Source: Candidatus Bipolaricaulota bacterium
Lineage (GTDB): Bacteria; Bipolaricaulota; Bipolaricaulia; UBA7950; UBA9294
Assembly: GCA_015485945.1 (NCBI GenBank)
Contig: WFSM01000096.1
Coordinates: forward strand, 1 to 10,239
Reading direction: 5' to 3'
DNA: 10,239 nt
The notes under the pieces were generated by a model. It was given only the letters and a program-made list of their open reading frames with translations, did not search any database and was not told where the DNA came from. The stretch's first letter is position 1. The number at the start of each line of letters is the position of its first letter. This document shows, in pieces, positions 1-10,239 of the stretch. A program made the position numbers and the translations under genes.

Positions 1-37
1 CCGATCACCACCAAATCGAACTGCGCCATTCCCTAAA

Positions 38-784
38 TTACTTCTCCCGGCGCGGAAACGCCCTGAAGATGTCGATTGGCACCGGGAAGATCACGGTGGA
101 CGAGTTTTCCGACGAGATGTCGATCAACGTCTGGAGATAACGCAGCTGGATCGCGGCGGGGTTGCGCTCGATGATCGCCGCCGCTTCGGACAACTTGGTC
201 GCCGCCTGCAACTCACCCTCGGCGTTGATGATCTTGGCACGGCGCTCGCGCTCCGCTTCAGCCTGCCGCGCAATCGCCCGCTGCATGTCCCCGGGGATCT
301 TCACGTCCTTGATCTCCACCGTCTTTACCTTGATCCCCCACGGATCGGTTTGTTCATCGATGATTTCCTGGAGCTTGAGGTTGATCTTCTCGCGTTCAGC
401 AAGGATCTCGTCGAGCTCAACCCCACCGAGGACGCTGCGCAGCGTGGTCATCGCGATCTGGCGGGTGGCCTCGATGTAGTTCTGTACCTCGACCACCGCC
501 GCGGACGGGTCGACGACGCGGAAAAATAGAACTGCGTTCACCAGTGTGGACACGTTGTCTTTGGTGATCACCTCCTGCGGCGGCACGTCAAGGGTGACAA
601 CGCGCAGACTTACCTTGACCATCTTGTCGACGATCGGCAGGAGGATAAAGATCCCCGGTCCCTTCGCCCCGACAAGCCGTCCCAACCGGAAGATCACTCC
701 CCGTTCGTACTCCCGCACTACTCGAATCGAATTCAGTAGGAAAATAATCACTATTCCTACAATAACGCCAATCGTTATCGCCAT
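38..784 (-). CDS. SPFH/band-7 family protein (stomatin/prohibitin-like membrane protein)
   Basis: The 248 aa ORF starts with a hydrophobic membrane anchor ([20 protein letters not shown]). A typical SPFH core follows ([16 protein letters not shown]...[11 protein letters not shown]...), then a coiled-coil Ala/Glu/Arg-rich region ([23 protein letters not shown]). An SD-like GGGGAGGGG lies 5-6 nt upstream of the ATG at 784. Confidence 0.85.
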
Positions 785-817
785 ATTCCCCTCCCCGAGA
801 TTGTTGGTACCACTTTG

Positions 818-846
818 ATCTTAGGAGGTAACAACGCCAGAGTCAA
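818..846 (-). promoter_or_regulatory. putative sigma70-like promoter for the SPFH gene (TTGACT-17 nt-TAAGAT, read on the minus strand)
   Basis: A -35 TTGACT lies at 846..841, overlapping the HAD gene stop. A 17 nt spacer follows, then a -10 TAAGAT at 823..818. This would give a ~25 nt leader carrying the SD. The call rests on sequence motif only. Confidence 0.25.
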
Positions 847-1502
847 TTATCACGCTCAAACTGAGATATCAATGGCGGGAGTTCGGAGAAATCGGAGATC
901 ACATGCGCCGCCACCTGGAGCAACTCATCGTCTTTTGGATTCACCGCCACCGGCAGGCCAACGATGCGCATCACCGGGATGTCGTTGATGTGATCCCCAA
1001 CGAAACACATCGCATCAAGCGGAATCCCGCGCTCCACCGCGATTTCACGCAGCACTTCATCCTTGCTCCACAGATCGACAACGATCTCGCTGTCACCGGT
1101 AAAGCGGCCGTTTTCGACGAGGATGCGGTTTGCCAACGCGAAATCGAACCCGAGATCGTCCTTGACATAGTCGGCAACGAGGTTCACCCCGGAGGAGATG
1201 ATTCCGAGCACGTACTTACCGCGCAGCGCGGCAACCGCTTCCCGTACTCCATGTGCGTATGGCGGCGGGAAGATGTGAGCGGCGATCTGTGACACGGAAA
1301 TCCCGGCGAGTAACGCCGCATCCTGGGCCACCCACTCCCGGTACGCGTCTCGGCGCGGGAGGTACTCGGCGAGCAACTTCTCGGAGTCCTCTCGCACTCC
1401 GGCAGCGGCGGCGATCGCCCCCCAACTCGATTCGAACTCTACTCCGTGGTAACGGACAAGCGTGCCGTCAAGGTCGAACACGACCGCCGCGAGTTTCCCC
1501 AT
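843..1502 (-). CDS. HAD-superfamily hydrolase, subfamily IB (phosphoserine-phosphatase-like)
   Basis: The 219 aa ORF carries HAD motif I, DLDGTL, at residues 10-15. It also has a C-terminal GDHINDIPVM motif (a GDxxND-type motif IV) and an overall SerB-like/HAD-IB layout. Its ATG at 1502 sits 2 nt after the TAG stop of the upstream beta-helix gene (TAGGGATG), with GGGGAG ~9 nt upstream. Confidence 0.8.
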   Translation of the reverse strand: MGKLAAVVFDLDGTLVRYHGVEFESSWGAIAAAAGVREDSEKLLAEYLPRRDAYREWVAQDAALLAGISVSQIAAHIFPPPYAHGVREAVAALRGKYVLGIISSGVNLVADYVKDDLGFDFALANRILVENGRFTGDSEIVVDLWSKDEVLREIAVERGIPLDAMCFVGDHINDIPVMRIVGLPVAVNPKDDELLQVAAHVISDFSELPPLISQFERDN

Positions 1503-1504
1503 CC

Positions 1505-3424
1505 CTACTTGCTCCCCGGCAGAGTAAGAACGGTTCCATCACCGATTCCGTTGGCCGCGATGAATCCCTGTGGAAGTTCGAGCGCGTATTGGAACGCTCC
1601 CTTCGCCGTGTACAACTGCTTTTTTTTGGCGTTAGCAGCATACACCTTCATCGTGGTGCCGCCGGCGAACTTGCCGGACTTGTCGAAGAAAACGATATCG
1701 ATCGGGAAGTGCACCGTTTCCATCGTGAACTGAACTTTAACTTCCTGCGTAAACGAGAACAGAATCGCCGGGAACACGGTGCGCAGGGACGGTGGGAACC
1801 CGCGAAATCCGGTGAACCGGGAGTACGGCTTGTCTGCAGCCAACGCGGTGACCGAGATTTTCTTCCCTGCTTTGGTCGTAAGCGTGAGTGTCTCTTTCGT
1901 AAGCGCACTCAGCACCCCAAGGTCGCCCGCGGCGCCGGCGGTGGTCATAATGGGAGCGGTGTCCTGCGCAGTGGACGGATAGACGGTCATCGGAGTGTCA
2001 CCGATACCGTCCTTGTTGGTATCCTTGCCGGTATACGTCGCCCAGTAATTTCCCACTCCGGACTGTGTCCACGTGTTGCCGTTACCATAGTCCTCCACTA
2101 CCGCCTTGCCGGTATCCAAAAAATAGTCGCCGTATATCATGTTTGCTTCGGAATCCTTGTTCAGGTAAAGATCTTTTTGGTTTTCGGAGAACACGTTGTC
2201 GCTGATAACATTCCCCACCACTTTTACCTTTCCGTACGTTTCGGGGAACAGAATCCCCTGGCTCTGTTGGGCGATCAGGTTGTGGGAAATGGTGTTGTAA
2301 CTGCCCGTCACCTCGACACCGTACGCACCAGCAACAATGGTGTTAAACGACACGGTGTTGTCCGCGCCGGTCTTGGAGATGGAGATACCCGTTTCCGCTT
2401 CGGCGATCGAATTCTGCGTGATTACGTTGCCGGTCGCCTGCCCGATTGCTATCCCGTATTTCGTATTCTTTTGGTAGATGATGTTCTGTGTGATCTTATT
2501 GTCCGTTGATCCGGCGGATAGCTGGATCCCGGTGGGATTGGCAGCGATCGCGTTGTTGGAAATCACGTTGTTGTCCGATGCGGCAACAAGTGCACCGAAA
2601 TTATTGGCCATTAACTGATTGTCGGTCACGGTGTTGTTCTTGGACAGCCACAGAAATAAGCCGGCAAAGCGGTTGTTCACCAAAATGTTATTGGTAACCG
2701 TGTTATTGTCGGATCGATACAGGGTAAGTCCGTGCTCGGTGTACACCGGATTGGTGCGCCGGGCTTCATTGTTGCGAATGATGGAGTTGGTCACAAACGC
2801 AAGCTGGATCCCGCCTCCGTTGACAATTGTGTTATTTTCGATCGTCACTCCGTCGCTGGCGACGACGTACAGGCACGTGCCTTTGATTCCACTCACCGTA
2901 CCGCCATGTTGTCCGTAGATGTAATGGATCGGCGCGTTATTAAGTATGTTGGTGGTGTCGATCGCCAGGTTGTACTCCGCCGGTGACTCGCCGATGACCC
3001 GCAGCCCCATTCCCTGAACGTCAATGACATTCATTTTCATGGTGATGGCGGTGGATGACGATATGTCAATCCCATTCAGCGAGTTGGAAATAGTGCACCC
3101 CTCGATTGTTGCCCCAGACACAAACCCGAGGTGGATCGCCGCTCCAAGAGGATCCATCGCGCCGCGGATTATGAGTCCCCGCAACACGAAATGCGCGGTC
3201 GTGTTCTGAATGTTGATCGCGTACGACGCCGTCTGGGGAACATCAATCTCCCAGCCAGCGATGATGTACGGATCAGTCGCGGTCCCGTTTCCTCCGATCA
3301 CTCCGTTCGCCGCGGTGAAGTCCGAATTACCAAGAATGGTTATCGGGGCATGCGTTCCAGCAACCCCGACAACGGCCATGAGCGCCAATCCGAGCAAAAA
3401 AACACCTATCATCCTAATGTGCAT
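1505..3424 (-). CDS. secreted right-handed parallel beta-helix (NosD/PbH1-repeat) protein with C-terminal DUF192 domain
   Basis: The track ORF runs 1505..3988, but its first 188 codons overlap the divergent 3663..4667 gene and lack an RBS. The internal ATG at 3424 is preceded by GAAGGAGAG 6-8 nt upstream. It opens a signal peptide, MHIRMIGVFLLGLALMAVVGVAGTHA. Repeated beta-helix rungs follow (NNxIxxNxxGIxL, ITQNxI...). A NosD-type motif is present: GNYWATYTGKDTNKDGIGDTPMTVYP. The C-terminal ~100 aa match DUF192/COG1430 (VHFPIDIVFFDKSGKF...GAFQYALELPQGFIAANGIGDG). Confidence 0.75.
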   Translation of the reverse strand: MHIRMIGVFLLGLALMAVVGVAGTHAPITILGNSDFTAANGVIGGNGTATDPYIIAGWEIDVPQTASYAINIQNTTAHFVLRGLIIRGAMDPLGAAIHLGFVSGATIEGCTISNSLNGIDISSSTAITMKMNVIDVQGMGLRVIGESPAEYNLAIDTTNILNNAPIHYIYGQHGGTVSGIKGTCLYVVASDGVTIENNTIVNGGGIQLAFVTNSIIRNNEARRTNPVYTEHGLTLYRSDNNTVTNNILVNNRFAGLFLWLSKNNTVTDNQLMANNFGALVAASDNNVISNNAIAANPTGIQLSAGSTDNKITQNIIYQKNTKYGIAIGQATGNVITQNSIAEAETGISISKTGADNTVSFNTIVAGAYGVEVTGSYNTISHNLIAQQSQGILFPETYGKVKVVGNVISDNVFSENQKDLYLNKDSEANMIYGDYFLDTGKAVVEDYGNGNTWTQSGVGNYWATYTGKDTNKDGIGDTPMTVYPSTAQDTAPIMTTAGAAGDLGVLSALTKETLTLTTKAGKKISVTALAADKPYSRFTGFRGFPPSLRTVFPAILFSFTQEVKVQFTMETVHFPIDIVFFDKSGKFAGGTTMKVYAANAKKKQLYTAKGAFQYALELPQGFIAANGIGDGTVLTLPGSK

Positions 3425-3458
3425 GTCAATCTCTCCTTCGCGTATAACCCAATTTTCT

Positions 3459-3487
3459 ATTATAGCCCGGCTCAACAGCACGAGCAA
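3459..3487 (-). promoter_or_regulatory. putative promoter of the beta-helix/HAD/SPFH gene run (consensus -10 TATAAT, weak -35 TTGCTC)
   Basis: The minus strand reads TTGCTC-17 nt-TATAAT. The -10 is the reverse complement of plus-strand attata at 3459..3464; the -35 corresponds to plus 3482..3487. This would leave a ~27 nt leader carrying the AAGGAG RBS. The call rests on motif only. Confidence 0.3.
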
Positions 3488-3649
3488 TACAACTCTACTC
3501 AAACGCAATAAAGATTCGATGGTGGAAAAATGGAGGAATGGTGAACGCCCGCATGACCAATTTCCCGTGATCCCGTAGTACCACCGCCAACGTGTCCGAC
3601 GTCCGATGAAAACGGGCGCGAAATGACCGGCAGCGGCCGCGAACGCCGC

Positions 3650-3655
3650 TATACT
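3650..3655 (+). promoter_or_regulatory. possible -10 element (TATACT) 7 nt upstream of the ATG at 3663, suggesting a leaderless transcript
   Basis: TATACT at 3650..3655 is followed by ggatggc and then ATG. No convincing SD or -35 is present, so this is weak. Confidence 0.2.
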
Positions 3656-3662
3656 GGATGGC

Positions 3663-4667
3663 ATGAAACTGTCGGGTGTAATGCGCTTCCTCAGTGTCTG
3701 TTTGGTCATCATCACCCTATTTGGAGTCGGGTCCAACCGCGGGTCAACCTCTGCCTCGTCCGCATTTCCCCTCTCCCCGCACAATCGGGTGGGAGTGTAC
3801 CTGACGTCGTACTCCCTGACTAAACCGGGAACGCTTGCCAGCGTGCTTGCCGCCGCCCAGGCGGGCATGATCAACGCCGTGGTGATAAACGTAAAAAATA
3901 TGCACGGCGAAATTACGTACGCGAGCAACGTCCCATTGGCACGGAAGATCGGGGCAGTTGCAACCAGAATTGACCCCCGCACCATCATCCCTAAACTCCA
4001 CGCCGCCGGGATCTACGTGATCGCCCGACAGGTCCTGTTCTACGATCCCAAACTGGCTGCCTATCTCGGGATTTCCGGAGCGTGGGTATCGCCGGAGAGC
4101 CCGCAAGTAGTTGCCTACAACCTCGCGATCGCGAATGAGACAGCGTCACTTGGGTTTGACGAGATCCAATTCGACTACCTGCGGTTCCCGGATGGCGAGG
4201 GCCTTGGAACCGGATACGGCCCGCGCTATGCCGCAATCGATGCGTTTCTCGATCGCGCGCGTCGTCTCCTCGCCGGCCGTGTTTTCATCTCCGCTGATCT
4301 GTTCGGTCGGGTGATGTGGAACTGGAACAAAAAGTTAATCGACCCGATCGGCCAATCGCTGGAACAAATCGGCGCCCGGGTTGACTTTCTTTCTCCGATG
4401 CTTTACCCATCCCACTATCACGAGCAGTACTACAAGAGCGACCCGTACCGGGTGGTGCACGATGCGCTTGTCACTGGTCGCGCCCGGGTAACCACGCCAA
4501 TTCGTCCGTTCCTGCAGGCGTTTGATCTTGATATTCCCCGCGGAATGTCGCTGGAGGATTACATCCGCGCTGAGATCAAGGCGGTGCAAGATGTCGGAGC
4601 GGATGGATATCTGTTTTGGAACCCAAGTTCCGACTACACCGCCCTGTATCGCGCCCTGTCCCGGTAG
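3663..4667 (+). CDS. secreted DUF4015-family putative glycoside-hydrolase-like (TIM-barrel) protein
   Basis: The 334 aa ORF has an N-terminal signal/anchor, MKLSGVMRFLSVCLVIITLFGVGS. GMINAVVINVKNMHGEITY and DEIQFDYLRFPDGEG resemble conserved blocks of Pfam DUF4015 (lNavViDvKdd.G; fDeiqfDYiRFP), recalled from memory. The stop is TAG at 4665..4667. Confidence 0.6.
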   Translation: MKLSGVMRFLSVCLVIITLFGVGSNRGSTSASSAFPLSPHNRVGVYLTSYSLTKPGTLASVLAAAQAGMINAVVINVKNMHGEITYASNVPLARKIGAVATRIDPRTIIPKLHAAGIYVIARQVLFYDPKLAAYLGISGAWVSPESPQVVAYNLAIANETASLGFDEIQFDYLRFPDGEGLGTGYGPRYAAIDAFLDRARRLLAGRVFISADLFGRVMWNWNKKLIDPIGQSLEQIGARVDFLSPMLYPSHYHEQYYKSDPYRVVHDALVTGRARVTTPIRPFLQAFDLDIPRGMSLEDYIRAEIKAVQDVGADGYLFWNPSSDYTALYRALSR

Positions 4668-4713
4668 GCTTTATCCCTGTGTTCGTTTACAGTACCATCG
4701 CCGGTAAGGAGGA

Positions 4714-5775
4714 ATGATGCAGCCCATCGAGGAATGGATCCGCACCAACCTAGACGTGGAGTGGACCAACTCGGCAACACTCCGCTACGCCGCGATGGAC
4801 CACCAGGCACCGCCCGACCTCGGGGGGGTATACCGCGATTACACTCCGGAGCGGGTCGATGACTGGATTGACCTAACGCTCATCATGGCGTACCTGGCCG
4901 CGCTGGGAACGACCGGGCGGATTCTCGACGTCGGCACCGGTGATGGATGGCCAGCGCTCCCGCTCGCTCCGTACGTGGATCGAGTAGTCGGGATCGATGC
5001 CACCTCCAAGCGGATCAATACGGCGGAGGCAAACCGGGCCCGGCGCGGGCACGAAAATGTGGAGTTCCGGCACGCTGCCTGCGAGCAAATCCCGTTTCCG
5101 ACTCACAGCTTCGACGGCGCCGTCGCCGGGACAGCGATTGAACAAGCGGTGGATCCGGGCGCGTGTTTGCGCGAGATTTATCGCGTGCTGAAGCGGGGCG
5201 GTGCCCTCGTTGCCACGGTCGAACACCTGGCGGGAGAACTCGGCGAACGCTCCGAGCAACAAGTGGAGTTGTTTCAGCGCGGCGACCGCTTCTGGTACCG
5301 CTACGCCGTAAAGGAGCCCGCCCCGCCGCGGGAGGTGGAGTACCTGGTTGAGATCAACCCCGATCCCCAATTGGAAGCAACCGCCGCCGCATTTCCGCAC
5401 CGGTCCGGATTTACCCGCCGGAAAGGAGAACCGGGAATGCAGCCCCTCACCTCCGCAATCGCTGCCGCATGTGGGCTCCCGTTATTGGAGCAGGTGCGTG
5501 ACAAAATCGTGCGGACACGCGGGTTCGAGCTTCACCACTATACCGTAGCCTCCCTGCGCCAAGCCCTCACTGCTGCTGGATTCTCGCGGGTACAAATCCG
5601 CGGGCCGATCACCCGGATCGCGAGTCGGTGTTTCATCGGACTGCATGAATCCGGCACTCTCCCCCACCTGCGCCCGTGGTTCGCCCACATCTGCCGCGGG
5701 CTCGCGGAAGCGTGGGCAGAGGTCCCAGCGGAGGAAAGTTCGCTCCTATTTATACGCGCGAGAAAGGAGACGTGA
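4714..5775 (+). CDS. class I SAM-dependent methyltransferase with ~150 aa C-terminal extension of unknown function
   Basis: AAGGAGG lies immediately upstream of the tandem ATGATG at 4714/4717. Motif I is ILDVGTGDGWPALPLA; post I is VVGIDAT; motif III is VLKRGGALV. The C-terminal region (residues ~200-353) is unrecognised. The TGA stop at 5773..5775 overlaps the next gene's ATG. Confidence 0.85.
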   Translation: MMQPIEEWIRTNLDVEWTNSATLRYAAMDHQAPPDLGGVYRDYTPERVDDWIDLTLIMAYLAALGTTGRILDVGTGDGWPALPLAPYVDRVVGIDATSKRINTAEANRARRGHENVEFRHAACEQIPFPTHSFDGAVAGTAIEQAVDPGACLREIYRVLKRGGALVATVEHLAGELGERSEQQVELFQRGDRFWYRYAVKEPAPPREVEYLVEINPDPQLEATAAAFPHRSGFTRRKGEPGMQPLTSAIAAACGLPLLEQVRDKIVRTRGFELHHYTVASLRQALTAAGFSRVQIRGPITRIASRCFIGLHESGTLPHLRPWFAHICRGLAEAWAEVPAEESSLLFIRARKET

Positions 5776-6725
5776 TGATCGACGTGCGAGAAAGCGCGCA
5801 CTATGTGATGAACCATGCTGCTTCCGTTGAAATCAACGCAAACGCGGTCCCGGGATTGGCAGCGGAGCTTCTTCCAATTCCAGTTCCTGACTGGGACTGC
5901 GTTTATCACTACTGCGATGGGACGGTACGCACCGCGGCCTACCTATTTGTGGTCGATTCCCTCAACTTCTGCTTCTTCCCGGTACCTCGTTGGCAGGTGG
6001 TTGTAAATGACGAACAGCTAAGCGGGTACTTCGCACTCACCGCGGTCCTGAAACAGGCACTCCTCGCCGGCCGGCCGATCGACGATTTTCGGTACTTGGC
6101 CACCGTTCCCGCCGCGGAGGTGAAAGAAATCCTCCACGGCGAAGTCAGGATCGGGGAGATACCGCTATTCGCGGACCGGGTCGCGATCCTGCACGAGATC
6201 GGAACGCAGATGACCGCGCGCTACGACGGCAGACCGGACAATCTCATTGCCGCCGCCGATAACAGTGCACTTCAGCTCGTCGAGCTGATAGTGGAGGCGT
6301 TTCCGTCGTTCCGCGACGAAGCGGATTACAACGGGAAACGGGTCGGCTTCTACAAGCGGGCGCAGATTCTCGCCGGCGACCTGTACGCGTGTTTTTCCGG
6401 GCGATCGTACGGTGCGTTTCACGACATCGCTCGCTTAACCGCGTTTGCCGACTACAAACTCCCCCAGCTCCTGCGCGCCGCCGGGGTATTGCACTACTCC
6501 GATACGTTGGCAGCGACAGTCGACAACGAGGAATGGATCGCTGCCGGCTCCCGGGAAGAGATCGAGATCCGCGCCGCCACGATCGTCGCGATCGAATTAG
6601 TACGGGACGCCCTTGCCCGCCGTGGCAGGCGCCTCCTTTCCCTCGAGCTCGATTGGCTGCTGTGGCATGCATCCCAACACAGGAAGATGGCGCCCCACCA
6701 CCGTACCCGCACCACGTTCTACTGA
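5775..6725 (+). CDS. DUF2419 / Qng1-like queuosine salvage protein (queuosine-5'-phosphate/queuosine N-glycosylase homolog)
   Basis: The track ORF starts at 5676. I prefer the ATG at 5775: AAAGGAGA lies 5 nt upstream and it overlaps the methyltransferase stop as TGATG. The 316 aa product aligns block by block with eukaryotic C9orf64/Qng1 as recalled from memory: FVVDSLNFCFF vs FVTDTLNFSFW; GKRVGFYKRAQILAGDL vs GKRVSFYKRAQILVADT; LTAFADYKLPQLL vs ITMFADYRLPQVL; EEIEIRAATIVAIELVRD vs QEVEIRGCSLWCVELIRD. Confidence 0.8.
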   Translation: MIDVRESAHYVMNHAASVEINANAVPGLAAELLPIPVPDWDCVYHYCDGTVRTAAYLFVVDSLNFCFFPVPRWQVVVNDEQLSGYFALTAVLKQALLAGRPIDDFRYLATVPAAEVKEILHGEVRIGEIPLFADRVAILHEIGTQMTARYDGRPDNLIAAADNSALQLVELIVEAFPSFRDEADYNGKRVGFYKRAQILAGDLYACFSGRSYGAFHDIARLTAFADYKLPQLLRAAGVLHYSDTLAATVDNEEWIAAGSREEIEIRAATIVAIELVRDALARRGRRLLSLELDWLLWHASQHRKMAPHHRTRTTFY

Positions 6726-7963
6726 TGTACGCGCTGATTCATCAGGACACGCATTCCCGCGCTCGCACCGGAGTAATCCACACCGCGCACGGGGACGTCG
6801 CCACTCCGGCGTTTGTGGCGGTGGCAACGCGGGCAAGCGTCAAAGCGGTCGAACCGGATGCGATCCGTGAAATCGGCGTTCAAATGGTGATTTCCAACTC
6901 TTATCACCTTCACCTGCGACCGGGCGAGGACACGATCGCCCGCCTCGGGGGGCTGCACGGGTTCTCAGGGTGGAACGGGCCGACGATGACTGATTCCGGC
7001 GGGTTTCAGGTGTTCAGCCTCGGCGCGGGCAAGGAACACGGGGTGGGCAAGGTAGCGTCGATATTCCCGGGTGAGGACCGCCCTCGCCAACCGGGCAACT
7101 ACAAACAGGGAAAATCACTCGTAAAACTGACCGAGGACGGAGTGTGGTTCCGGTCGGTGATCGACGGCTCACCGCGGTTCTTTTCCCCGGAGAGCGTGAT
7201 CGAACTCGAGCGCAACCTCGGAGCGGATATCATCCTCGTGTTGGACGAGTGCACGTCACCGCTGCACGACTACGCCTACACCAAGAACGCGATGGAGCGC
7301 ACCCACCGCTGGGCAGCGCGGGCGGTAGCCGCATTCGCCCGCCTTCATGATGAGGTTTGGTTTCCCAACCCGGAGCAACATCTATTCGGAATCGTTCAGG
7401 GCGGAGCGTACGAGGATCTACGGACCGAGAGCGCACGTACGATCGCCACAATGGGGTTCGCCGGGTTCGCGATCGGAGGATCGCTGGGAAAATCCAAGTC
7501 CGACATGTACCACGTCCTTGACTGGACGATCCCTATATTGCCGGCGGACAGGCCGCGCCACCTGCTTGGGATCGGTGAGATTGAAGACATCTTCGCTGCG
7601 GTGCGTCGCGGTGTGGATACGTTCGACTGTGCCGCCCCGACGCGAATCGCCCGTAATGGAACGGTGTTCGTCAAGGAAGCACCGCGCCACCGCATCAACC
7701 TGCGCAACGCGCGGTTCCGCGATGACTTCCGCCCGATTGACCCGACGTGTGACTGCTTCACGTGTCGCCACCACTCCCGCGCCTACCTGCGCCACCTGTG
7801 CCGTGCTGGTGAGCTGTCATTCTACCGGCTAACGACCATTCACAACCTGCGGTTTCTCACCCGACTGATGGCTGAGATCAGAGATGCGATCGGTGCCGAC
7901 CGATTCGACGCACTCGCCGCCGAGTGGGGTGTCGTCACCGGTTACCCTGACTCGACGGACTGA
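6725..7963 (+). CDS. tgt: queuine/tRNA-guanine transglycosylase
   Basis: The ATG at 6725 overlaps the preceding TGA as TGATG. The N-terminus, MYALIHQDTHSRARTGVIHTAHGDVATPAFVAVAT, parallels E. coli Tgt. Catalytic-Asp and zinc motifs are present: TDSGGFQVFSL, LDEC, LLGIGEIED and the zinc site CDCFTCRHH...H. The track's N-terminal extension from 6389 is Arg-rich and overlaps the Qng1-like gene, so I rejected it. Confidence 0.9.
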   Translation: MYALIHQDTHSRARTGVIHTAHGDVATPAFVAVATRASVKAVEPDAIREIGVQMVISNSYHLHLRPGEDTIARLGGLHGFSGWNGPTMTDSGGFQVFSLGAGKEHGVGKVASIFPGEDRPRQPGNYKQGKSLVKLTEDGVWFRSVIDGSPRFFSPESVIELERNLGADIILVLDECTSPLHDYAYTKNAMERTHRWAARAVAAFARLHDEVWFPNPEQHLFGIVQGGAYEDLRTESARTIATMGFAGFAIGGSLGKSKSDMYHVLDWTIPILPADRPRHLLGIGEIEDIFAAVRRGVDTFDCAAPTRIARNGTVFVKEAPRHRINLRNARFRDDFRPIDPTCDCFTCRHHSRAYLRHLCRAGELSFYRLTTIHNLRFLTRLMAEIRDAIGADRFDALAAEWGVVTGYPDSTD

Positions 7964-8472
7964 GAATGATCGAATCGACACCCCGGGCACAAATCTCCGT
8001 CCCCGAAAAACACGACTCCGCACCGCACGCATCGCTTCGCACCCGCGGCTAGCAGTGCTGCCTCCCGCTGGCGTAGAGTGACGTACAGCCGGGTGAACGA
8101 CCGTTGCAGTTGGGGGTCAGGCACACCCGCGAACATGTGTGCTGCATCCGCCGGCAACTGGGGATCATGCGGAGGGTGCGGTATCCGGCGTGGGAGTGGT
8201 ATCCGCCCGGGGATAAACCGGATTTCACGCACGACGGCCGCTCCGACTGCCTGATTGAGACGGGCGATGTACTGTTCCCGAAGTAAGAATAGCTCCTGGC
8301 GGGCGGCAGCTGAATTCACAGCGACTGTAAGGATTCCATCAGTGAATCGGATTGGCTTAGTAATGCGGGCAATTTGGGGGCCACCGATTTCTGGCCATAA
8401 CAGTAATGGTTGTTGGGCACTAAACTTTTCCCCCAGATTGTAGCGGCGTAGTACTTCAGTTACCCAGTTCAT
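7942..8472 (-). CDS. dciA: DUF721/DciA-like protein (putative replicative helicase operator) with C-terminal CxxC...CxxC zinc-ribbon tail
   Basis: The 176 aa ORF carries the DUF721 pattern W-x-E-IGG-x-IA...DG-ILTVAV-NSAAARQEL...RLNQAVG...IRFIPG, recalled from memory. A Pro-rich linker follows, then CVRCGVVFFGDGDLCPGC. The gene lies directly beside dnaA/oriC and overlaps the tgt 3' end convergently by 22 nt. No clear SD is present, and the N-terminal coding region has lower GC. Confidence 0.65.
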   Translation of the reverse strand: MNWVTEVLRRYNLGEKFSAQQPLLLWPEIGGPQIARITKPIRFTDGILTVAVNSAAARQELFLLREQYIARLNQAVGAAVVREIRFIPGRIPLPRRIPHPPHDPQLPADAAHMFAGVPDPQLQRSFTRLYVTLRQREAALLAAGAKRCVRCGVVFFGDGDLCPGCRFDHSQSVESG

Positions 8473-8762
8473 TTAAAGGACCTGTAGGAGTTGTAGTGGG
8501 GACATTAGTCTGGGGAAAAGGGCACGATTGTCGATCCTGTCCAGTGTAACCGTTGGGGAAAACCCTGTGGATAACCTGTTCATAACGGTGGAAAACAGTG
8601 GATATGCGCTGGGGAGAACTTTGCCCGTAGTTGTTCACTGTACTTTTCCACAACGAACAGCGCTTTTTCACCACTTTTCCGCCCCTTTTCCCCAGGGTTT
8701 TCCACAGGGAGCCGATAGTCACTCGCTTGCTGTGTTGCCGTCTATACACGTGTTTCCGAAGT
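8473..8762. other. candidate chromosomal replication origin (oriC): DnaA-box cluster in the dnaA-dciA intergenic spacer
   Basis: A perfect DnaA box, TGTGGATAA, lies at 8566..8574. One-mismatch boxes TTTTCCACA lie at 8644..8652 and 8698..8706. Two-mismatch boxes lie at 8587..8595 (GGTGGAAAA) and 8597..8605 (AGTGGATAT). The spacer sits immediately downstream of dnaA. Confidence 0.6.
8511..8694. repeat. inverted repeat TGGGGAAAAGGG(c/g) at 8511..8523 and 8682..8694 flanking the DnaA-box cluster; a third partial copy TGGGGAAAACCC lies at 8554..8565
   Basis: The reverse complement of 8682..8694 (ccccttttcccca) is tggggaaaagggg. Plus 8511..8523 reads tggggaaaagggc. The two agree at 12 of 13 positions. 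Confidence 0.5.
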
Positions 8763-10103
8763 TCAACGAACGGTAAACCGGGCCCGCAGGCTCTCTTCAA
8801 TCTCTTTTATCTCCGCATGAAGGAGCGGCATCTCTTCGATGAGGGACTTAATCTTCATGTAGGAATGCATGATTGTGGTGTGATCTCGGTTTCCGAACTG
8901 GCGTCCGATAGCGGGAAACGACTGGTTGGTGAGCTCGCGTGTCAGGTAGATCGCGATATGACGCGCTTGGGAGATCTCTTTTTTGCGACTTGCCCCTTCG
9001 ATGTCGCGCCGTTTCAAGTGGTACCTGGTTGCAACTTCGTCCTTGATGTGCTCCGCGCTCAACCGCTCGCGCTTGCCCTCCTCGGGGAGCATGTCCTCCA
9101 GGGTGGTGGGGGTAAGGTTCTGGCCCTCCAGCTCGGCATGAGCGATCGCCCGGACGAGTGCTCCCTCCAATGCACGGACGTTGGATGAAATGCGGCTGGC
9201 GATCAGTTCGAGGATATCGTCATTTACAATCAATCCGCGGTTTTGCGCCTTTTCGCGCAGAATCGCGACCCTGGTCTCGAAATCCGGCGGTTGGATATCG
9301 GCCACTAACCCCCAGCGAAATCGAGATACCAACCGTTCCTGCAGCCCGGATAGCTCTTCGGGTGGGCGATCGCTCGACAGCACGATCTGCTTTTCGCGGC
9401 CGTATAGCTCGTTGAACGTATGGAACAATTCCTCCTGTGTTGCTTCCTTGCCTTGCAGAAAATGCACGTCGTCGATGAGAAGAAGATCGATGCGGCGGTA
9501 CTTCTCGCGAAACGCGGACGTGGTATTTCCCCGGATGGCGTTGATCAGCTCGATGGCGAACCGCTCCGATGTTGTGTACACGATTGTCATTGGTTGTTCG
9601 GATTGGAGAATAAAGTTGCCGATTGCCTGGAGAAGGTGGGTTTTACCCAACCCAACGCTTCCGTAGATGAACAGGGGGTTATACGCCTTGCCCGGCGCTT
9701 CGGCCACCGCCATTGACGCTGCGTACGCGAGGTGATTGTTTTTCCCGCGCACGAATTGGTCGAACGTGTAATCGGGATTGAGGGGGAGAGTGTTTCCGTG
9801 CACAGCTATCCGTGTTGGCGAGATTGAGGGGGGAGAAAGATCATCATGCTTTGTCTCGGCGACCGCGAAATTAATCGCAAGCTGATCGCCGAAGTGAGCT
9901 TGGCTGAGCCGATCGATGATGTTCCGATAGCGCCGCTCGATCCCGCCTTTGATGAAACTGTCCGGAACTGCGACGACGAGTTGGTCGTCCGTCATTTGCA
10001 GCGGCCGTGTCTCACCAAACCACGTTTCAAAACTGGCGCGCGGGAGTTCCTTTCGCAATCCAGAAAGGATACTTTCCCAGACGGCCATGGGATTTTCATT
10101 CAT
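8763..10103 (-). CDS. dnaA: chromosomal replication initiator protein DnaA
   Basis: The 446 aa ORF opens with a DnaA-like N-terminus (VWESILSGLRKELPRASFETWFGETRP). It has an AAA+ Walker A (GSVGLGKTHLLQAIGN) and Walker B (LLLIDDVHFL). The C-terminal DnaA-box-binding signature RDHTTIMHSYMKIKSL is present. GAGGGG lies 6 nt upstream of the ATG at 10103. Confidence 0.95.
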   Translation of the reverse strand: MNENPMAVWESILSGLRKELPRASFETWFGETRPLQMTDDQLVVAVPDSFIKGGIERRYRNIIDRLSQAHFGDQLAINFAVAETKHDDLSPPSISPTRIAVHGNTLPLNPDYTFDQFVRGKNNHLAYAASMAVAEAPGKAYNPLFIYGSVGLGKTHLLQAIGNFILQSEQPMTIVYTTSERFAIELINAIRGNTTSAFREKYRRIDLLLIDDVHFLQGKEATQEELFHTFNELYGREKQIVLSSDRPPEELSGLQERLVSRFRWGLVADIQPPDFETRVAILREKAQNRGLIVNDDILELIASRISSNVRALEGALVRAIAHAELEGQNLTPTTLEDMLPEEGKRERLSAEHIKDEVATRYHLKRRDIEGASRKKEISQARHIAIYLTRELTNQSFPAIGRQFGNRDHTTIMHSYMKIKSLIEEMPLLHAEIKEIEESLRARFTVR

Positions 10104-10123
10104 CGGACGCCCCTCATCGCCTA

Positions 10124-10153
10124 ACCATAGCGGAATAAACCTTAACCCGTCAA
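10124..10153 (-). promoter_or_regulatory. putative dnaA promoter (TTGACG-18 nt-TATGGT) in the 59 bp spacer between tRNA-Phe and dnaA
   Basis: On the minus strand, a -35 TTGACG lies at 10153..10148 and a -10 TATGGT at 10129..10124. The call rests on motif only; the spacer is 18 nt. Confidence 0.3.
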
Positions 10154-10162
10154 GGGAAAGCC

Positions 10163-10238
10163 TGGTGCCGAGGCCCAGATTCGAACTGGGGACACCGGCC
10201 TTTTCAGGGCCGTGCTCTACCGCCTGAGCTACCTCGGC
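10163..10238 (-). tRNA. tRNA-Phe (anticodon GAA)
   Basis: The reverse complement of 10163..10238 reads GCCGAGGTAGCTCAGGCGGTAGAGCACGGCCCTGAAAAGGCCGGTGTCCCCAGTTCGAATCTGGGCCTCGGCACCA. This is 76 nt and folds as a cloverleaf. The acceptor stem is GCCGAGG/CCTCGGC, the anticodon loop is CTGAAAA (GAA), the T-loop is TTCGAATC, and the 3' CCA is encoded. Confidence 0.9.
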
Positions 10239-10239
10239 G

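Follow-up and report, generated by a model that had tools for sequence, protein, structure and literature searches.

To our knowledge, queuosine (Q) is the only modification of transfer RNA (tRNA) that is acquired by salvage. Steps of this salvage are still missing, for example a Q kinase, transporters and further derivatisation. We analyzed a stretch of 10,239 nucleotides (the 10-kb window) from Candidatus Bipolaricaulota bacterium (GenBank assembly GCA_015485945.1, contig WFSM01000096.1, positions 1 to 10,239 of the forward strand), in which plus-strand genes for a class I S-adenosylmethionine (SAM) methyltransferase (MT), for Qng1 (DUF2419) and for the tRNA-guanine transglycosylase Tgt overlap one another. 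Salvage by the last two proteins has a described counterpart: bacterial DUF2419 complements yeast, and Sphaerobacter thermophilus has been described as an organism without de novo Q genes (PMC4425180, PMC9881137). Queuine salvage by its Qng1 is the subject of Zallot 2014 (cited in PMC4425180) and Hung 2023 (PMC9881137). Neighbourhoods of qng1 have already been mined for transporters (PMC11130926), and the Qng1 papers PMC9881137 and PMC11130926 do not use the word "methyltransferase" anywhere in their main text (0 occurrences). A full-text literature search for Bipolaricaulota and queuosine together returned nothing. In agreement with an earlier note on this DNA, no role of the MT in Q metabolism is known.

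The locus is probably a bacterial queuine-salvage operon of the described kind, with a lineage-specific and dispensable MT as accessory gene. The earlier note had seen in the locus a candidate for an undescribed system; salvage by a bacterial Qng1 is in fact published for S. thermophilus (PMC9881137, PMC4425180), the Qng1–Tgt pair is widespread, and, beyond the Tgt pocket subtype, nothing about it is new. The MT is the sole potentially new biology at this locus, in a phylum that is uncultured and genome-reduced.

Qng1, Tgt and their junctions

The middle gene (qng1, 5775..6725, +) encodes 316 aa from its ATG, a predicted queuosine-5'-phosphate/queuosine N-glycosylase releasing queuine. The profile comparison upheld its assignment to Qng1/DUF2419: the protein matches Q_salvage (PF10343) with an E-value of 8.9e-87 and 291.7 bits, compared to a cut-off of 25 bits, over profile positions 2-285 of 285, and it matches the S. 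thermophilus (St) Qng1 structures 7uk3/7u07 with an E-value of about 8e-77. Alignment to the St structure places K194 and D226 at the catalytic Lys and Asp of the helix-hairpin-helix (HhH) motif (St K199 and D231), I198 at an aliphatic position (St I203), Y227 at St Y232, and D293 and W297 at the residues of 7-deazaguanine recognition (St D298 and W302). The protein ends with ...TTFY, in which Y316, the last residue before the TGA, corresponds to the C-terminal Tyr (St Y323). These catalytic and recognition residues are invariant across 16 aligned bacterial homologues. The residue roles (catalytic, recognition, terminal Tyr carboxylate) come from S. thermophilus Qng1 (PMC9881137), and because the carboxylate of the terminal Tyr is catalytic, the position of the qng1 stop codon is fixed.

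Qng1 was found in at least 447 species-representative genomes, and PF10343/Qng1 proteins form more than 2,000 protein clusters; thus, the statement that DUF2419 is rare in bacteria was overstated. Most of 80 Qng1 loci carry tgt directly downstream on the same strand, and the Qng1/Tgt junction is TACTGATG in most Qng1–Tgt loci. Qng1 without an adjoining Tgt occurs in the compared loci (L-numbers) L083-L085 (Thermogemmatispora), L025, L036, L042 and L044, so that the pair is dispersed in some lineages; the Thermogemmatispora copies match residues 44-316 only. On the complete chromosome of "Deltaproteobacteria bin79" (L061:8915-10525), the similarity of the Tgt open reading frame (ORF) downstream of Qng1 is confined to Tgt residues 12-150, and this tgt may be truncated or split.

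The last gene (tgt, 6725..7963, +, 412 aa) encodes a tRNA-guanine(34) transglycosylase of a Qng1-linked subtype with the pocket DSGGFQ / DECTSP / GGSLGKSK. It matches TGT (PF01702) with an E-value of 1e-135 and the TIGR00430 equivalog with 468 bits (cut-off 306.75), in agreement with its earlier identification as Tgt. The eukaryote-type label that the note had given to the module does not extend to this enzyme, however: it is bacterial-type by score, keeps Cys158 in place of the Val158 of the eukaryotic TGT and is not QTRT1-like, and no second Tgt-like or QTRT2-like gene was seen in the window. When aligned to Z. mobilis TGT, it retains D102, D156, D280 and the CxCxxC..H zinc site, and shares the motifs DSGGFQ, LDEC, TFDC, CDCFTC and IHN. 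The canonical pocket of preQ1-specific bacterial TGT (bTGT) combines GGLAVGE (Leu231/Ala232/Val233/Glu235) with Tyr106, a signature taken from PMC11570991. The window Tgt departs from this pocket, as position 106 of the alignment is Phe, GGSLGKS replaces GGLAVGE and Val233 is absent; its best PDB matches include the engineered variants V233G and Y106F.

The pocket is shared: all 55 full-length Tgts examined that are linked to Qng1 or MT, from Bipolaricaulota, Desulfobacterota, Chloroflexota and the candidate phyla radiation (CPR), have DSGGFQ / DECTSP / GGSLG[KRS][ST]K, with GGSVG or GGALG in two of them. Judged by these alignments, the GGSLG-type is a well-defined Qng1-associated Tgt subtype. 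In the form GGSLG[KR]S, it tracks Qng1 over at least four phyla and could be an annotation signature for queuine-using bacterial Tgts. Two observations weigh against queuine as the substrate. The published signature of queuine-salvaging bTGT is GG[LS][AS]G, compared to GGLAVG in preQ1 enzymes (PMC11570991), and GGSLG comes close to it without matching it in full: it agrees at 4/5 positions, with Leu for Ala/Ser, and the alignment has an ambiguous one-residue gap, although Val233 is missing with either placement; in addition, Cys158 (DECTSP) is retained in 55/55 linked Tgts.

The absence of the GGLAVGE/Tyr106 pocket, together with the conserved catalytic residues of Qng1, nevertheless favours the earlier view that the two proteins are likely to serve salvage of queuine or queuosine rather than de novo synthesis from preQ1. 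By homology, Qng1 would convert scavenged queuosine-5'-phosphate (Q-5'-phosphate) or queuosine to free queuine; Tgt, with its enlarged or altered pocket (GGSLG[KR]S for GGLAVGE, Phe for Tyr106), would then exchange G34 of tRNA-Asp, tRNA-Asn, tRNA-His and tRNA-Tyr for queuine. Such direct insertion of queuine would bypass preQ1, QueA and QueG/H.

Reading of the sequence confirmed the coordinates of the three plus-strand genes and both TGATG overlaps. The MT gene occupies 4714..5775 (+, 353 aa); translation may instead begin at the next ATG (4717), because the close homologues P0001 and P0002 have 352 aa, and both starts are preceded by a Shine-Dalgarno sequence, AAGGAGG (4706..4712, +), read from the sequence. 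The MT/Qng1 overlap lies at 5773..5777 (+; TGA 5773-5775, ATG 5775-5777), and the Shine-Dalgarno sequence of qng1, AAGGAG (5764..5769, +), falls within the last codons of the MT gene, 5 nt ahead of ATG 5775. The Qng1/Tgt overlap lies at 6723..6727 (+; TGA 6723-6725, ATG 6725-6727). A search for a Shine-Dalgarno sequence upstream of the tgt ATG, by reading the sequence, found none; therefore, translation of tgt probably depends on coupling. Counts of promoters and terminators within the MT-qng1-tgt region do not exceed the shuffle expectation and are uninformative on a splitting of the putative operon. Control by a preQ1 or other riboswitch was considered and rejected, as an Rfam scan of the window yielded tRNA-Phe only.

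Sequence, fold and family of the methyltransferase

The first gene product has the GxGxG of motif I, the acidic end of strand beta-2 and the Rossmann fold of class I SAM methyltransferases, and it matches Methyltransf_11 with an E-value of 3e-21 over residues 71-166 only. This agrees with the earlier description of a class I enzyme with an unrecognised C-terminal part: beyond residue ~180, the MT has no Pfam match. Solved structures cover just 175-220 of its 353 residues, and the protein has a family-specific N-terminal lid and, after strand beta-5, a region of ~170 aa without any solved-structure match. The AlphaFold model is very confident (pLDDT 95.6, pTM 0.91). All of the best 50 Foldseek matches to this model are natural-product small-molecule MTs (among them SeMT/PsmD, SpnF, AtmM, RebM, MitM, TleD, CgnL, CypM, CcbJ and ToxA; TMq at most 0.52), and none of these 50 is an RNA MT. 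The best PDB matches of the family profile are AtmM (2.7e-26), YcgJ, RebM and MitM, whereas the tRNA MT CmoM reaches just an E-value of 2.7e-9, on the SAM core. No RNA-binding domain was found with Pfam, and the protein shows no specific match to tRNA MT families such as CmoM/CmoA and TrmI.

A His-His pair after strand beta-4 is the proposed catalytic base of RebM/AtmM-type sugar O-methyltransferases. The MT does not have it: the invariant E143-Q144 aligns to the His-His pair of RebM, AtmM and YcgJ. The other conserved positions form an aromatic and polar set (W8, Q31, W51, W79, Y210, H275 and F290). The isoelectric points (pI) in the family are 4.9-6.2, R100 and R157 being the sole invariant basic residues; it should be noted that pI was kept as weak evidence for discriminating RNA from small-molecule substrates. 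Overall, we moderately favour a small molecule over tRNA as the substrate. Several named families were tried and rejected. As ArsM, the name of its top NCBIfam matches, the MT scores 58-67 bits, compared to cut-offs of 263-510, and the family alignment of 38 sequences contains no invariant Cys that could correspond to the As-binding cysteines; for UbiE and other named MT families, all scores are far under the cut-offs.

Full-length homologues of the MT are few. When 1.84 billion representatives were searched exhaustively with the profile, the family comprised 136 clusters (50% identity) at E<=1e-30, of which about three exceeded 400 bits. A metagenome scan with the family motif LDxGxGDGW separated two groups, A (>440 bits; identity to the window MT of 37% or more) and B (180-256 bits). 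Group A was found in Bipolaricaulota/Acetothermia-type metagenome-assembled genomes only, some of which are labelled "uncultured Thermotogae", and it alone has conserved R24, R41 and R196, plus an EPG loop. Group B includes a protein of cultured Tissierella, annotated only generically, and its neighbours are housekeeping genes (PDZ, PHP, radical SAM-HhH, YchF, PlsX, RsgA), so that the neighbourhoods of group B gave no functional hints. Assembly GCA_040960625.1 carries both a Tgt-linked group A MT (L002) and a group B paralogue that lacks this linkage and adjoins RsgA (L007:7001-8023), which indicates distinct roles for the two groups.

Gene order and the possible role of the methyltransferase

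The related loci share a backbone in which HAD, beta-helix/DUF192 and DUF4015 genes are followed by a slot and then by Tgt, unk316 and PKD. The slot holds MT and Qng1 in the window and in L001, L002, L009, L011, L016, L017, L096, L097 and L099; Qng1 only in L013, L018, L019, L021 and L068; and MT only in L005, L093, L095, L109 and L110. Among the matches listed, the closest relative of the window locus is L009, with a Qng1 that is 91% identical. A second context, unrelated in its flanks, has the order WD40-MT-Qng1-Tgt-DUF389 (L006 and L101); here, the MT is 37-41% identical to that of the window, and for Tgt the identity between L006 and the window is 61%. The MT/Qng1 overlap is 1 or 4 nt in 17/18 loci. 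Thus, the MT is conserved next to DUF2419 and tgt in relatives, the second context included, and the lack of such conservation that the earlier note had named as a refutation was not observed. In MT-only loci, MT and Tgt either share 4-8 nt (L093, L095) or have 66-121 nt between them (L110, L005), and the MT lies directly 5' of tgt in two separate clades without qng1 in the slot.

In a neighbour-joining tree of Tgt (no bootstraps), loci with both MT and Qng1 are basal (L006) and present in most clades; interspersed among them are three or more lineages with Qng1 alone and two clades with MT alone. This pattern fits an ancestral trio with repeated independent loss of either accessory gene. Orthologues and paralogues of the MT differ in their surroundings: Tgt or Qng1 is associated with ~25 of ~30 informative orthologue loci, compared to none of the 57 loci of group B paralogues. 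On this evidence, the MT, which is rare, acidic and apparently of the small-molecule type, would be ancestral to a Bipolaricaulota clade and kept there directly 5' of tgt. We lean, if only by a little, toward a tie of the MT to the Tgt/Q pathway as a dispensable accessory step, because the order is kept where the flanks differ, the MT stays by tgt after the loss of Qng1, and the paralogues are unlinked.

Several findings weigh against such a tie. In a third lineage, the MT is unlinked and has the neighbours LigT-archease-RtcB-(WD40)-MT-AP_endonuc_2 (L003, L103-105, L169), with neither Qng1 nor Tgt within 7-10 kb. Three or more interspersed lineages (L019; L068; L020/L021) lack the MT in the slot, as do L013 and L018; MT-less Qng1–Tgt slots mean that salvage does not need the MT. 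All cases of MT–tgt linkage come from one phylum; therefore, the independent contexts number just two or three. The earlier note regarded the overlaps as a hallmark of a co-translated operon, but they are no more than expected by chance for this lineage: in the related loci, genes that follow each other on one strand mostly overlap or are at most 10 nt apart, even where their functions are unrelated, and the genes of RtcB, the secreted WD40 protein, MT and AP_endonuc_2 are packed equally tight. ATGA overlaps are weak evidence, since overlaps are generic in compact genomes. The unlinked paralogues share the catalytic core of the MT (W8, Q31, W79, E143-Q144, Y210, H275). Finally, co-adaptation of the Tgt pocket with the MT was looked for among the 55 linked Tgts and rejected, as the pocket is the same with or without the MT. 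As for the earlier suggestion of a new step of Q metabolism, the MT does recur next to tgt, but it is dispensable for the module (L013, L018, L019, L021, L068), confined to one phylum and unlinked in L003, L103-105 and L169.

Much of this would be expected of an unrelated passenger that was inserted 5' of tgt in the ancestor of the Bipolaricaulota clade and held by synteny and dense packing, and that methylates a metabolite of some other pathway, salvage being the task of Qng1 and Tgt only; we consider this a serious possibility, though not the one we would bet on. It is consistent with the repeated losses of MT, which leave Qng1–Tgt undisturbed, with the equally tight packing of the unlinked MT among RtcB, WD40 and AP_endonuc_2 genes, with secreted and unrelated 5' neighbours (DUF4015, WD40) that are just as constant, with paralogues of the same catalytic core in housekeeping contexts (RsgA, YchF, PlsX, PDZ), and with a Tgt pocket that is unaffected by the presence of MT. 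A passenger is harder to reconcile with a trio order that survives at 37% MT identity while all flanks are different, with an MT that still adjoins tgt in two clades after Qng1 loss, re-coupled by a 4-8-nt overlap, and with the difference between 0/57 paralogue and ~25/~30 informative orthologue loci. If the MT is a passenger, the locus is ordinary. It is improbable, in our estimate, that the MT acts on tRNA itself, e.g., on Q34 after insertion or on a nearby anticodon-loop nucleotide of the Q-family tRNAs, by analogy to the cross-talk of Q34 with Dnmt2. Both recurrent neighbourhoods of the MT are tRNA-centred (Tgt; LigT-archease-RtcB), the MT persists by Tgt even where the small-molecule step, Qng1, is lacking, and R24, R41 and R196 are conserved in the Tgt-linked group only; yet neither Pfam nor the comparison of solved structures with the extra regions recognised an RNA-binding domain, the acidic MT proteins are almost without invariant basic residues, the nearest relatives in sequence and fold are all small-molecule MTs, and the adjacency to RtcB is limited to a single lineage of densely packed genes.

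Tight overlaps and a conserved order of three genes would also be expected if the locus were a previously undescribed eukaryote-type system, one that could not salvage queuine without methylation as a new step. This is very hard to believe, given that salvage by bacterial Qng1 and q-type Tgt is published (PMC9881137, PMC4425180, PMC11130926), that the module exists without MT in hundreds of species and on the very same backbone, and that Tgt is bacterial-type by score, with no QTRT2-like partner gene seen in the window. Returning to the MT as a dispensable accessory of the Tgt/Q pathway, its most likely role would be methylation, either ahead of the Tgt reaction or following it, of a 7-deazaguanine compound such as queuine, Q, Q-5'-phosphate or another salvaged precursor, and less likely of tRNA. 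The specific proposition that the Tgt-linked MT produces a queuine-family compound with a methyl group, or converts a scavenged 7-deazaguanine (e.g., preQ1) into the base that the GGSLG-type Tgt inserts, is speculative and, as it stands, rather doubtful. If true, methylation of queuine, queuosine, Q-5'-phosphate or Q34 in tRNA would give a new tRNA wobble modification, or the conversion would be a new one in salvage; in either case, 7-deazaguanine metabolism would gain its first class I SAM methyltransferase, and Q salvage in Bipolaricaulota a new branch.

Some neighbours of the MT in the compared loci are worth recording. A seven-bladed WD40 propeller of ~310 aa with a signal peptide is always encoded directly 5' of the MT in loci of the Bipolaricaulaceae type, and in many cases the two genes share 4 nt (L003:6075-7004, L006:6030-6971, L101, L106, L108, L111, L169:9069-10004). 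A partnership of the two proteins, in analogy to Trm8-Trm82 and Trm7-Trm734, was rejected, as six of six WD40 neighbours have signal peptides and are probably exported. The 309-aa gene 5' of the MT in L003 was examined as a divergent Qng1 and turned out to be a WD40 protein without Qng1 similarity. In one lineage, a conserved RNA repair/ligation cluster of LigT (2',5'-RNA ligase/phosphoesterase), archease and RtcB is located directly 5' of WD40/MT (L003:3577-6071, L169:6602-9065, L103:3317-5797); an apparent RtcB-MT fusion in L103-105 is a long ORF produced by out-of-frame read-through in GC-rich DNA. At L011:4975-6096, the MT frame reaches 65 nt into qng1, compared to the usual overlap of 1-4 nt; the MT may have an extended C terminus here, or the assembly a frameshift. 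In L006, a DUF389 membrane protein is encoded directly after tgt on the same strand (10254-11270) and could be a candidate transporter of queuine or queuosine.

Flanking genes and comparison with described systems

Upstream of the MT gene, at a distance of 46 nt, the window encodes a secreted DUF4015 glycosyl-hydrolase-like protein (3663..4667, +; PF13200, E = 3.6e-69). Its gene may be co-transcribed with that of the MT, yet we do not regard it as part of the Q module; according to the gene maps, it is a constant backbone neighbour with or without MT or Qng1 and is missing from the L006-type trio. An 827-aa ORF on the minus strand (1505-3988) contains NosD/right-handed beta-helix repeats and a C-terminal DUF192. 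Its real start is probably internal, near 3415, because the relatives have ~640 aa, and this would give a divergent promoter region of ~250 bp before the DUF4015 gene. Downstream of tgt are the convergent dciA, then dnaA, a cluster of DnaA boxes and tRNA-Phe. The tail-to-tail overlap of tgt (+) and dciA (-) is 22 nt (7942-7963); thus, there is no space for an intergenic terminator. Three DnaA boxes lie in the dciA-dnaA intergenic region (8473-8762): one reads TTATCCACA (8566-8574, -) and two read TTTTCCACA (8644-8652 and 8698-8706, +), and the window as a whole has 5 DnaA-box matches versus 1.28 expected. By these motifs, the region is likely to be oriC, ~0.5 kb from the 3' end of tgt. A tRNA-Phe(GAA) gene lies directly upstream of dnaA (10163-10238, -).

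Among the described systems, S. thermophilus has a Qng1 that, like that of the window, combines the HhH catalytic Asp and Lys, the recognition Asp and Trp and the C-terminal Tyr, and releases queuine for Tgt. It differs in that S. thermophilus belongs to Chloroflexota, whereas the window comes from a Bipolaricaulota-type phylum and has qng1 coupled between MT and tgt. The predicted route also resembles eukaryotic QNG1 with QTRT1/QTRT2, in which Q-5'-phosphate is converted to queuine that is inserted directly at G34. Like the window Tgt, QTRT1, which the mutants Y106F/C158V/V233G mimic, lacks Val233 and carries Phe in place of Tyr106. In contrast to QTRT1, the window Tgt keeps Cys158, has GGSLGKS rather than GGLSGGE and scores as a bacterial equivalog. 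In the direct and indirect queuine salvage of pathogens, the q-specific bTGT of Chlamydia trachomatis likewise has an altered pocket, one that accepts queuine, and in the QueK/QueL salvage of Clostridioides difficile a nucleoside hydrolase supplies the base (PMC11130926, PMC11570991), although the window hydrolase is Qng1 rather than QueK and there is no QueL lyase.

For the MT, the best matches to its core are RebM, AtmM and MitM (PDB 3bus, 6uv6, 8zc8; E-values from 2.7e-26 to 4.6e-21, Foldseek E-values of about 1e-14). These are small-molecule O- or N-methyltransferases, and the substrates of RebM and AtmM are N-glycosides of planar heteroaromatics. The alignment with them is limited to the Rossmann core and a portion of the lid; nothing in them corresponds to the N-terminal lid of the MT or to its C-terminal region of 170 aa. 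DpdM is a phage dPreQ1 N-methyltransferase with a DUF3109 fold and CxxxCxxCC metal sites (PMC10516641), and it acts on DNA. The possibility that the MT is a DpdM homologue was rejected: the metal-binding fold of DpdM is unrelated to the class I Rossmann fold of the MT, and phage matches to the MT span the SAM core only. DpdM is, however, the only validated 7-deazaguanine methylase, and its place alongside a Tgt-family transglycosylase makes it a functional precedent for a putative Q-family methylation by the MT.

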